A stretch of 64,000 nucleotides of DNA from Leptospira stimsonii (GTDB lineage Bacteria > Spirochaetota > Leptospiria > Leptospirales > Leptospiraceae): assembly GCF_003545875.1 (NCBI RefSeq), contig NZ_QHCS01000001.1:1267337-1331336 (forward strand). The letters run 5' to 3'. Made by a program: the position numbers and the translations under genes. The notes beneath the pieces were generated by a model, which was not told the origin of the DNA, made no database searches, and saw only the letters and a program-made list of their open reading frames with translations. Shown in pieces: positions 27,405-28,937 of this stretch (position 1 is its first letter; the number at the start of each line of letters is the position of its first letter).

Positions 27405-28680
27405 TTACTTTAGCGGTTGAGAGTTGATAAATTTAACTTTCACGGGATCGGTTGTCATAAATTCTGATCCTTTACCCGGTTGTCCATAGTCGGGATCTAC
27501 TTTTGTGCTATATTTTCTATATTTCGGATCATTGAGAATTTCAAATTCAACTCTATGAGTAGGTTTTTTTTCTAATGAAAGTCTTTCCTGTGCTTTTGCT
27601 CCAGACTTGTATAGGTCCTTTGTAAAATATGTCTTCCCGGGATTTCCTCCTCTTAACATTCCCGTATCTTTAATAGCCTGAATTTCCCCTTCCGTTACAT
27701 AACGATAGCCCGATGTTGTCGAAGTGTTTTTTATATTAAATGGTGAGATGCTTTCTTGATTTCTTATCCCGGAATTCCCTCCATGTGTCGCCCCACTTTT
27801 GCTACCTGTTCCAACAAAATTGTTTATATCATTTTTATTAAGCGGATCAAGACCAGCTTTCCCCATCTCCTTTGCATCATTTGGAGTTACAGATGTGCTT
27901 CGCGGTTTGTCAGGAAGACTTGGCTTATCTTTATTGGAGCCTAATAAATTTGCCAAGAGGCCCGTTGCAGCGGCTCCAAGCCCACCTGAATATCCATTAC
28001 CTGAATTTGAAGAATTTGGCTTTGCAACGGAGCCACCACCAGAACCACCTAATTCAAGTTGAGTCTGACATGGAACTTTGGAAAGGGTGCTACAATGCCC
28101 GGTCGGATCCTTCGCCCCGATCGGATTTCCCTTCACATACGAGAATCGGTTCTAGCCCTGCGTATCCGACTCGCCGTCGATGATCGTATCCGCGCTGGTA
28201 AATCTCGCGATTCCCGGATCGTAGTAACGAGCGTTGTAAAAGTAAAACCCGGACTCGCGATCCAACTCTTGCGAATTGTATTTCGGAGCGAAGTTCGTAT
28301 CTCCCTTGTGAACGAAGGTATCTCCGTAAGGAAGATACTGCATTCTGGAAAGAGTATTTCCTTCGTCGTCTAACACATGCGATACGGAGTCGACTTGGTC
28401 TGTGAGGAAGTAGGCGAGCGCTCCTGCTTCGTTTAATGCGGCGATCCGAACTCCGTTCAAGTAGACGTTGTTCACGGATGTGACTACATTCTCGCTTTCG
28501 ATGTATTCGAGTCCGTAAAACTTGCTTGGATAAAGAATTTCTACGTTTGTGAACTGATTATTCTTTGGTTCAAGTGCGGATCTTCGAACACGAAAGCCGC
28601 CTTCATCATACCAATAAGGACCGAGGATCGCGTTGTTTGCGTCTTGGATTTGAACGATTCTGTCTTGAGAATCTACGCTG
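27405..28680 (-). pseudogene. Orphan rhs 3' fragment: Rhs core end (about 97% identical to 30033-30670) with an in-frame TAG, then an alternative C-terminal toxin tip
   Basis: 28059-28700 aligns nearly base-for-base with the main rhs gene. A TGG (Trp) to TAG change occurs near 28137-28152 ('ttctagccc' versus 'ttccagccc'). Downstream from 'KGNPIGAKDPTGHC' the protein sequence is unrelated to the main toxin tip. Confidence 0.7.
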
Positions 28681-28937
28681 ATTCTTTTTGTTAAATCTTT
28701 TGCGTTGACGAGTTAGGTTTCCGTTTGCGTTTTATTGGGGTGTTTCCTTCGCTTGCGCTCGGACCGGGCTCTTTGCTTCGGTCAAGTTATTGAGGATTTT
28801 TCGGAAAGAGTCGTGTTCTGCTTTGATGGCAATAACTTGACCCCGCATCGATCCCTAACGCGTTGTCGAGGATTCAGATATTTCTTTTCTTCTTTCGGAT
28901 TTCTCTTATTTGAGGAAAATTGTTTTCAAGGAACCTT
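28671..28937 (-). repeat. ~265-bp cassette-associated repeat, copy 2, with a perfect 12-bp inverted repeat (gtcaagttattg N36 caataacttgac)
   Basis: Direct comparison with 26767-27020. The hairpin is at 28786-28844. Confidence 0.8.

Follow-up and report, generated by a model that had tools for sequence, protein, structure and literature searches.

Introduction

In Salmonella, E. coli and Serratia, rhs genes are reportedly followed downstream by orphan cassettes composed of an rhs C-terminal tip and an immunity gene (rhs-CT/immunity cassettes). We analysed a comparable array in a stretch of 64,000 nucleotides (nt) of Leptospira stimsonii DNA (NCBI RefSeq assembly GCF_003545875.1, contig NZ_QHCS01000001.1, positions 1,267,337 to 1,331,336; hereafter the window), which is chromosomal and whose flanks are 99% identical to L. 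stimsonii contigs. The subject of the analysis is a repeat of about 290 bp that occurs twice in this array and contains an inverted repeat. Shared with the enterobacterial orphans are the order of core fragment, divergent C-terminal tip and small open reading frame (ORF), as well as a core nearly identical to that of the main gene (96% here), a substrate for tip-swapping recombination. The Leptospira orphans differ in that each keeps the 5' end of the gene (upstream region, start and a relic of the signal peptide), fused at a fixed core point, YDANGNLT. Their cassettes contain two homology blocks, head and core, whereas the enterobacterial orphans contain one, and in some Leptospira species they are intact ORFs of 440-490 amino acids (aa).

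ERIC, Correia/NEMIS, REP and BIME are structured dispersed repeats or MITEs (miniature transposable elements with inverted repeats). The structured element within the Leptospira repeat is similar to ERIC-, Correia- and REP-type repeats in being short (~125-230 nt), multicopy, mostly intergenic and present in either orientation, and in having hairpins that are kept by compensatory changes and are sometimes co-opted into gene ends. It differs from them in the conservation of unpaired junction nucleotides and in a hairpin (P2) whose sequence and length are wholly variable; neither terminal inverted repeats nor target-site duplications were demonstrated for it, and no parent transposase was identified. 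Integron attC sites are hairpins, conserved in structure and variable in sequence, that punctuate gene cassettes. The Leptospira element resembles them in all three respects; however, it occupies the cassette gene's 5' end and, in full-length genes, lies within the coding sequence. Its arms (GTCAAGTTATTG/CAATAACTTGAC) do not fit the attC core sites (RYYYAAC/GTTRRRY), and no integrase gene lies beside the array in the window.

The Flavo-1 motif (Rfam: RF01705) was described by Weinberg et al. 2010 (PMC2864571) with an alignment that includes a member from the spirochaete Treponema denticola. Flavo-1 hits in Flavobacterium psychrophilum lie sense, antisense or outside transcripts, and the function of the motif is unknown (PMC9723704). 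A preprint on the long-read transcriptome of Leptospira lists Flavo-1 among the Rfam hits for regions of L. interrogans and L. borgpetersenii that are transcribed but lack annotation (10.1101/2023.03.29.534852). A literature search revealed nothing specific on a Leptospira repeat of this kind or on Leptospira rhs arrays.

We consider it likely that the repeat is an rhs head which fronts the orphan cassettes, that its hairpin is one helix of a dispersed Flavo-1-like element, and that the repeat copies may act as homology within the array. Orphan rhs cassettes and Flavo-1-type repeats are known kinds, of which the Leptospira head is a new form; notable is the overlap of the motif with the start codon and signal peptide of Rhs and its retention at the head of each silent cassette.

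Two copies of the repeat and their inverted repeat

The two copies of the repeat span positions 26765-27045 (copy 1) and 28669-28960 (copy 2). The core of copy 1 comprises 26765-27022, with weaker similarity up to ~27045, and the core of copy 2 comprises 28669-28937, with an extension to ~28960. The copies show a mean identity of 86% over the aligned part, with blocks of 89-100%, and their differences include indels of 1 nt and 6 nt. Copy 2 contains an inverted repeat of 13 bp (GGTCAAGTTATTG at 28780-28792 and CAATAACTTGACC at 28830-28842), the arms of which are 100% complementary and separated by a spacer of 37 nt. In 3000 dinucleotide-preserving shuffles of 28671-28937, an inverted repeat of 13 bp was reached in one and of at least 11 bp in six. 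In copy 1 an insertion of 1 nt in one arm leads to a bulged stem with a perfect part of 9 bp.

A preliminary description of the window had noted a perfect 12-bp inverted repeat within a repeat that follows each immunity gene and punctuates the cassette array. The inverted repeat was confirmed, although its length is 13 bp and its spacer 37 nt; copy 1 is the imperfect version that had been supposed, and the copies do bracket cassette 2. The antisense ORFs within the repeat are spurious, as already supposed: their extents are different in the two copies, which also differ by the 1-nt and 6-nt indels. A 38-codon ORF (MRGQVIAIKAEHDS...) was considered as a small protein and rejected, as it is frameshifted in copy 1 and the copies from L. 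kirschneri, L. interrogans and L. noguchii interrupt it with stops.

The repeat as the head of an rhs gene

Every rhs-related gene at the array lies on the minus strand, and the order in the direction of transcription is truncated main rhs gene, immunity gene 1, repeat copy 2, core fragment, tip 2, immunity gene 2, repeat copy 1 and unrelated DNA. Because of this orientation, each repeat heads the cassette that comes next and is situated upstream of the core fragment joined to it; it is not the tail of an immunity gene, and the preliminary description was wrong on this point. As read from its sequence, the ~290-bp repeat is a retained rhs 5' end, which consists of an upstream segment (module A), a structured element of ~125 nt and a direct junction, at QYDANGNLT, with the ~210 codons that end the rhs core.

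Module A of copy 2 (28862..28960, minus strand; TGAAAACAATTTTCC...GAAAGAAGAAAAGAAATAT) begins ~6 nt past the stop codon of the putative immunity gene 1 (29 nt if the core 28862-28937 is considered) and is 72-80% identical to segments 5' of full-length rhs genes. Module A of copy 1 was assigned to 26953..27045 (minus strand) by alignment of the copies. A BLASTN search of plasmids with the repeat detected 68 places in 35 Leptospira plasmids (L. kirschneri, L. interrogans, L. noguchii, L. weilii), including six matches to the full-length repeat with 75-77% identity. The orphan-type heads on these plasmids are fused to the core at YDANGNLT. In three annotated plasmid regions the full-length matches have a small ORF on one side and a fragment of the rhs core on the other, like the repeat in the window, and the matches to module A only (its first ~60-75 nt) are located immediately 5' of full-length rhs genes of ~4 kb. 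The plasmid segments matching module A are L015 17019-17077, L016 12620-12692 and 24906-24978, and L017 24860-24916 and 33940-33998. An alignment of the upstream regions revealed a homologue of the hairpin region after module A in plasmid rhs genes of L. kirschneri, L. noguchii and L. interrogans.

In some plasmid rhs leaders, module A and the element are separated by a 39-nt unit (GGAGGAAACTCAGCGCCACGGCTCTCTA[CT]GGATCGCCGC on the coding strand), which is repeated in tandem up to 5.2 times (L016 12404-12606; also L011 ~12700-12800). Single units precede several element copies that are not linked to rhs.

The annotated TTG start codon of full-length rhs genes forms the last triplet of the hairpin's 5' arm (AGTCAATAAATTG); the loop codes for the hydrophobic core of their signal peptide (MGLKLIFWLTFLSFNLLTGAESPV), and the 3' arm (CAATTTATTGACT) for its residues FNLLT. 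The intact Rhs proteins P0014, P0025 and P0039 open with the hairpin-encoded sequence MGLK.I....F.SFNLLTGAESPV (N-terminus MGLKLIFWLTFLSFNLLTGAESPVSEKQ...). A search with the 52-aa Rhs N-terminus for other protein families using the element retrieved seven short hypothetical fragments only.

The junction with the rhs core in copy 2 (28671..28737, minus strand) corresponds to the codons (Q)YDANGNLTRQRDNAKDLTKRISVD in an alignment with positions 30609-30686 of the main gene; the identity with 30609-30676 is 84% over 68 nt, with a deletion of 8 bp. The rhs homology noted earlier at the edge of the repeat is therefore present, but extends over ~67 nt (28671-28737) instead of 13 nt. In copy 1 the corresponding terminal stub of the rhs core (26765..26827, minus strand) loses its homology at ...ATCAGCGTAGATTC, beyond which the sequence is unrelated; stub and downstream sequence are also found in other L. 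stimsonii strains (L011, L013). The whole repeat was additionally considered as decayed rhs core, which was rejected because the core-like part is confined to its last ~67 nt. Since the parts of the repeat match the upstream and start region of full-length rhs genes, the orphan cassette can be described as an internally deleted rhs gene with its head kept.

In the window this gene is broken. A TAG replaces a Trp codon at ~28152-28160 near the end of the core, a TAA replaces the Tyr codon of QYDANGNLT at 28737, and 8 bp are deleted at 28700. Together with the decay of the signal-peptide codons, these lesions identify the orphan cassette as a pseudogene, in which a relic of the rhs start region is still present, whereas homologues elsewhere are open ORFs. 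Copy 1 comprises the head and a core stub only. The homologue in L. sanjuanensis (L064 6001-7326) has neither the TAA nor the 8-bp deletion and was called as an open ORF of 441 aa with an intact head-core junction (L064 6040-6130). The L. sanjuanensis array on L064 has four heads, one at the front of each cassette and one terminal, and its protein P0093, 95% identical to the core in the window, reads (M)TEAESPVRAYAKETPQYDANGNLT. The Leptospira plasmid proteins P0101, P0102 and P0108 run from a signal peptide through ...SLET to YDANGNLT in intact ORFs. These three and L016 16693-18015 are intact predicted 'mini-Rhs' ORFs of 440-490 aa, in which a complete signal peptide is joined to ~210 residues from the end of the core and to a toxin tip.

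Fold and covariation of the structured element

The inverted repeat is P1b, the apical helix of the element. Searches were made with R1, a covariance model that covers the P1 domain and was made from 24 copies; the window copies and their orphan-type relatives were left out of it. R1 detected the element of copy 2 (28738..28861, minus strand) with 83.2 bits (E 5e-19) and that of copy 1 (26828..26952, minus strand) with 76.2 bits (E 3e-17). The element is closed by P0, a 5-bp helix of the form GCGNN/N'N'CGC, the last two pairs of which are GC/GC, AA/TT, GT/AC, GA/TC or TT/AA, and TG/CA in a further window copy at 59816. P0 is intact in copy 1 (GCGTT/AACGC) and has one mismatch in copy 2 (GCGTT at 28857-28861 with AACAC at 28740-28744, minus strand). 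The P1 domain (28763-28861 in copy 2, minus strand) contains a composite helix that leads from GGG.AUCGA.GCGG through the 13-bp hairpin to GRAGCNGAGAGCCCGGU. On the coding strand of copy 2, the 5' arm of P1b (GGTCAAGTTATTG) is located at 28830..28842 and the 3' arm (CAATAACTTGACC) at 28780..28792, and in copy 1 P1b carries the 1-nt bulge. The hairpin P2 follows right after CCCGGU; its sequence and its length (11-75 nt) are wholly variable among copies, yet it is still paired. In copy 2 a remnant of P2 is present at 28746-28762 on the minus strand (CCGAGCGCAAGCGAAGG). The minimum-free-energy fold of the minus-strand RNA of copy 2 recovered P0 and P1, with a z-score of -2.33.

The L. stimsonii heads, compared with the orphan heads on plasmids, show an identity of 100% in the arms, 59.5% in the loop and ~73% in module A. 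A comparison of the orphan-type arms (GGTCAAGTTATTG/CAATAACTTGACC) with the arms of full-length genes (AGTCAATAAATTG) showed four pairs changed on both sides and none broken. When 31 distinct copies were aligned with their loops trimmed, standard pairs made up 95.2% of the cells, compared with 81.8% in shuffles (none of 500 reached the observed value) and 27-44% in slid registers, and changes on both sides were found in 14 of the 31 pairs. Selection on the fold of the element, as DNA or as RNA, would keep the arms perfect. The preliminary description would have been refuted by a repeat found only here and lacking conserved structure; relatives contain further copies, and in these the fold is kept.

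A dispersed family in Leptospira

Besides the two rhs-linked copies, R1 detected two further element copies in the window, so that there are four in all, each on the minus strand. Copy 3 (23002..23102; 68.9 bits; P0 GCGTT/AACGC, arms GTCAAAAAATTG/AATTTTTTGAC) lies away from the rhs cassettes and is syntenic with copies in L. ainlahdjerensis (L020) and L. stimsonii (L011 16673-16772). Copy 4 (59816..59913; 80.8 bits) is located between two plus-strand genes and antisense to both; it shows compensatory variants in its arms (ATTCAACAAATTG/CAATTTGTTGAAT) and has GCG/CGC instead of GGG/CCC. In 602 kb of Leptospira loci, which were chosen for carrying the motif or rhs and whose copy density is therefore not a genome-wide estimate, R1 found 76 matches of at least 42 bits.

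A search for the conserved 3' flank motif (TTGACNGNAGCNNAGAGCCCGGT) in one genome per species revealed 45 loci, 43 of them in Leptospira/Leptospiraceae. The taxa with the motif include L. interrogans, L. weilii, L. noguchii, L. alstonii, L. alexanderi, L. borgpetersenii, L. adleri, L. ainlahdjerensis, L. ainazelensis and metagenome-assembled genomes. A 22-mer from the repeat gave no matches in a scan of genome contigs; the 45 loci come from a degenerate motif. The rhs coding sequence continues at about one third of the motif loci, and the others enter unrelated sequence filled with stops. Copies without rhs lie between ordinary genes that are convergent, tandem or antisense, in either orientation. 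At L045 and L050 the site is matched between L. alstonii and L. weilii, with a compensated change in P2. The element is hence not specific to rhs, but is a predicted structured family (P0, P1, P2) dispersed in pathogenic Leptospira.

At L023, L028, L044, L053 and L055 two copies were found within 3-6 kb, near genes for cation efflux, GNAT, thioesterase and outer membrane proteins, and we judge such clustering to be commoner than would be expected by chance for a family of this size. At L040 6440-6523 and L052 6120-6203, apparently the matching locus in two species, a tRNA gene on the opposite strand is separated from an element copy by about 100-250 nt. In L. interrogans (L019, L023) some non-coding copies have the rhs-type P2 stem (TTCGGAGAAA/TTTCTCCGAA) with A-rich junk loops; the occurrence of both arm types (TAA/TTA and GTT/AAC) with one P2 suggests exchange between copies.

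Relation to Flavo-1

Formal comparison with Rfam places the Leptospira copies below the threshold of the Flavo-1 family. A search of window positions 26000-32000 against Rfam at E<=1 gave no match, the Flavo-1 model gave none for 28650-28950 at E<=10, and none of 18 Leptospira loci matched at the Rfam gathering threshold. In a search of short stretches, Flavo-1 was the top match for L055 2579-2694 (26.3 bits) and for window positions 59811-59922 (25.6 bits), where the gathering score is 42. The full Flavo-1 model (positions 1-76) aligned to these two copies and matched GAU.GA.GCGG and AGCGGA.AGCG. The rhs-linked copies of the window, for which a small RNA had been among the earlier suggestions, are without any match.

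The seed alignment of 2010 contains strings of the form GCGUUAGGGAU...AGCCCGG, and its rows GCGUUAGGGAU... ...AGCCCGGUC match the window sequence by eye, in a string comparison that is not a calibrated test. The Flavo-1 seed reads GCGUUAGGGAUU.GCAGC.GG ... AGCGAAAAGCCCGACC, compared with GCGUUAGGGAUCGAUGCGG ... GAAGCAAAGAGCCCGGUCC in the window. Both motifs have nested helices, with an outer helix of 3 bp (GGG/CCC), a bulged A, a helix of 2 bp, GA, a helix of 2-3 bp and a long apical hairpin, and both are present in many copies per genome. Unlike Flavo-1, the Leptospira element has a fixed apical helix of 13 bp with a loop of 34-38 nt, an additional closing helix (P0) and a hypervariable hairpin (P2), and some of its copies lie inside the start of an rhs coding region and encode a signal peptide. 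We named the element 'Flavo-1-like' because it shares the defining strings and helices and fails the formal threshold.

The start codon and signal peptide of Rhs toxins thereby give this Flavo-1-like motif a place where it can be tested, and the covariance model and coordinates can be used to probe its role. Improbable in our view, though of interest, is a further possibility, namely that the element is a portable functional nucleic-acid module that would supply Rhs toxins with a ribosome-binding region, start codon and Sec signal peptide and would form a boundary for the shuffling, silencing and reactivation of cassettes. This would be the first functional context for the Flavo-1 motif. If the element is merely a hitch-hiking repeat, it still explains spurious short ORFs and odd start-codon calls in Leptospira rhs genes.

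Proposed recombination in the array

Two further L. stimsonii loci with flanks 99% identical to those of the window (L011, L013) contain the main gene, an immunity gene, one head and the stub. Compared with these, the window strain has one additional cassette, flanked by two heads. The succession of head, cassette and head in the window, and of a single head elsewhere, is what unequal crossing-over between heads would be expected to produce. Heads and core fragments would serve as direct repeats for crossing-over of the RecA type, which would add, delete or swap cassettes of tip and immunity gene, and the 96%-identical core fragments would permit replacement of the tip, as in enterobacterial orphan rhs systems. 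We thus infer a role of the repeat in cassette gain and loss by homologous recombination, the most economical one for the array. The proposal of a recombination site is plausible in this form, merely as homology, since direct repeats flank cassette 2; neither a recombinase gene nor a site-specific core was identified. With this anatomy, an anonymous repeat becomes the head of internally deleted rhs genes with two homology blocks for cassette exchange, which accounts for the strain differences at the locus.

A match of tip 2 with the main tip in another L. stimsonii strain would have been direct evidence for switching; in the one strain examined, the two did not correspond. One truncated rhs core bears different tips in three L. 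stimsonii strains (P0001, P0002, P0003).

Alternative explanations

Several observations weigh against an rhs head with a maintained fold. The 3' boundaries of P2 and P0 were set in part on the condition that two pairs close the helix, which slightly inflates the pairing of P2; the boundaries of P1 and the 5' boundary of P0 were set without this condition. Of 1638 pairs, 93% are Watson-Crick pairs, and G-U pairs (27) show no excess over A-C pairs (19); these counts are without resolving power, and an RNA of the rhs sense strand is neither supported nor excluded by them. A consensus scan of module A and the repeat revealed no sigma-70-like promoter on the coding strand. The loci that gave the 76 matches were, as mentioned, a selected set, and the role in recombination is based on a comparison of three strains in which no recombinant junction was seen. 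Finally, the orphan-type heads have a degenerate P2 (two of six outer pairs), with the P0 mismatch in copy 2 and the P1b bulge in copy 1, so that these head copies may be decaying relics.

The last point leads to a pure relic that was duplicated with the cassette and has no present function, its hairpin being perfect through recent ancestry or hairpin-templated repair. We regard this as rather unlikely. It agrees with the pseudogene state of the cassette, with the lesions in P2, P0 and P1b, and with the 86-100% identity of the window copies, which indicates recent shared ancestry. It does not agree with arms and junctions that are invariant across species while loop identity falls to 59.5%, with four double substitutions between orphan-type and main-type arms that leave no pair broken, or with a fold kept at dozens of unrelated loci.

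Unlikely, too, is a cis-acting RNA regulator (a thermometer or riboregulator) that would hide the ribosome-binding region and start codon and thereby gate translation or stability of each rhs or cassette mRNA. The 5' arm of full-length rhs genes ends with the TTG start, and immediately 5' of the stem there is a GGAG; with the start codon within the stem, translational control is attractive for these genes, and compensatory changes in the fold as well as the transcribed unannotated Leptospira regions matching Flavo-1 (10.1101/2023.03.29.534852) are in line with it. However, the orphans of the window have no intact ORF to control, and most copies of the element are intergenic in either orientation with no ORF starting inside, one of them (59816-59913) antisense between two genes. 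Translational control cannot be the role of the element in dead orphans and antisense intergenic copies, and the G-U pairs are not in excess over A-C pairs.

We hold it to be improbable that the element is a structure-specific site for recombination or transposition (similar to attC, REP/RAYT or MITEs), with DNA hairpins recognised by a recombinase that moves cassettes. No integrase or transposase is consistently adjacent to its copies, the copies at 23002 and at L045/L050 are syntenic across species and hence have not moved recently, and full-length rhs genes have the element within their coding region. These findings stand against its position at cassette boundaries, the nearly exclusive Watson-Crick pairing, equally good on both strands, the conservation of structure and not of sequence in P2, and the presence of two to three copies within 8 kb at several non-rhs loci. 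Leptospirales are, moreover, reported to be unusually rich in MITEs (PMC11602168), and in a single subfamily (L042, L044) the flanks make up an outer inverted repeat that is long. A look-up of exact proteins for empty sites returned matches from the same species alone.

An intrinsic terminator or attenuator after each immunity gene, as had been proposed, is very improbable: the hairpin does lie 30-130 nt past the immunity stop codons, and a small GC hairpin followed by TCTTTGCTTC was flagged on the plus strand at 28757-28769 and 26847-26859, but these sites are on the strand opposite the genes, a terminator scan found no minus-strand terminator-like site in either repeat copy, the coding-strand 13-bp stem is AT-rich with a 37-nt loop and is followed by GAAGCAAAGAGCCC without a U-run, and an equivalent hairpin stands at the start of full-length rhs coding regions.

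Genes of the array and its surroundings

The main rhs gene (29292..31376, minus strand) is truncated at its 5' end, has a match to Pfam RHS_repeat and ends in tip 1. Its product is 100% identical to the L. stimsonii protein P0001 and aligns with residues 410-865 of the full-length Leptospira Rhs P0025 (1069 aa) with 80% identity. The main gene has no head and no signal peptide. The putative immunity gene 1 (28966..29295, minus strand), assigned by position only, is an ORF of 109 aa that overlaps the stop of the main gene.

The orphan core fragment (28092..28670, minus strand) comprises the last ~190 core codons up to DPTGH and contains the in-frame TAG. Its part 28092-28391 is 96% identical to main gene positions 30030-30329, and the homology runs on to 28737. 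Tip 2, a putative toxin (27405..28136, minus strand), belongs to an ORF that opens at the core end KGNPIGAKDPTGH; it diverges from tip 1 after the core end DPxGH, and its linker is 56% identical to that of the tip of L. santarosai Rhs P0014. Directly after tip 2 follows an ORF of 115 aa, the putative immunity gene 2 (27053..27400, minus strand), likewise assigned by position only. Pfam searches gave no matches for tip 2 and the two putative immunity proteins, and immunity gene 2 was not homologous to the Imm40 gene of L. sanjuanensis (L064). Look-ups of exact proteins returned nothing for both putative immunity proteins or for two start variants of the Band_7 neighbour; the related loci were reached through look-ups of the MGS protein and of Rhs homologues.

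Beyond the array, past the unrelated sequence, lies a gene for a membrane protein of 346 aa. In related arrays, genes for Rpn-family recombination-promoting nucleases flank a plasmid rhs array (L015 2192-3094 and 17177-18091), and insertion sequence (rve) transposase genes flank or interrupt the chromosomal array of L. sanjuanensis (L064 311-1524 and 7751-8803).

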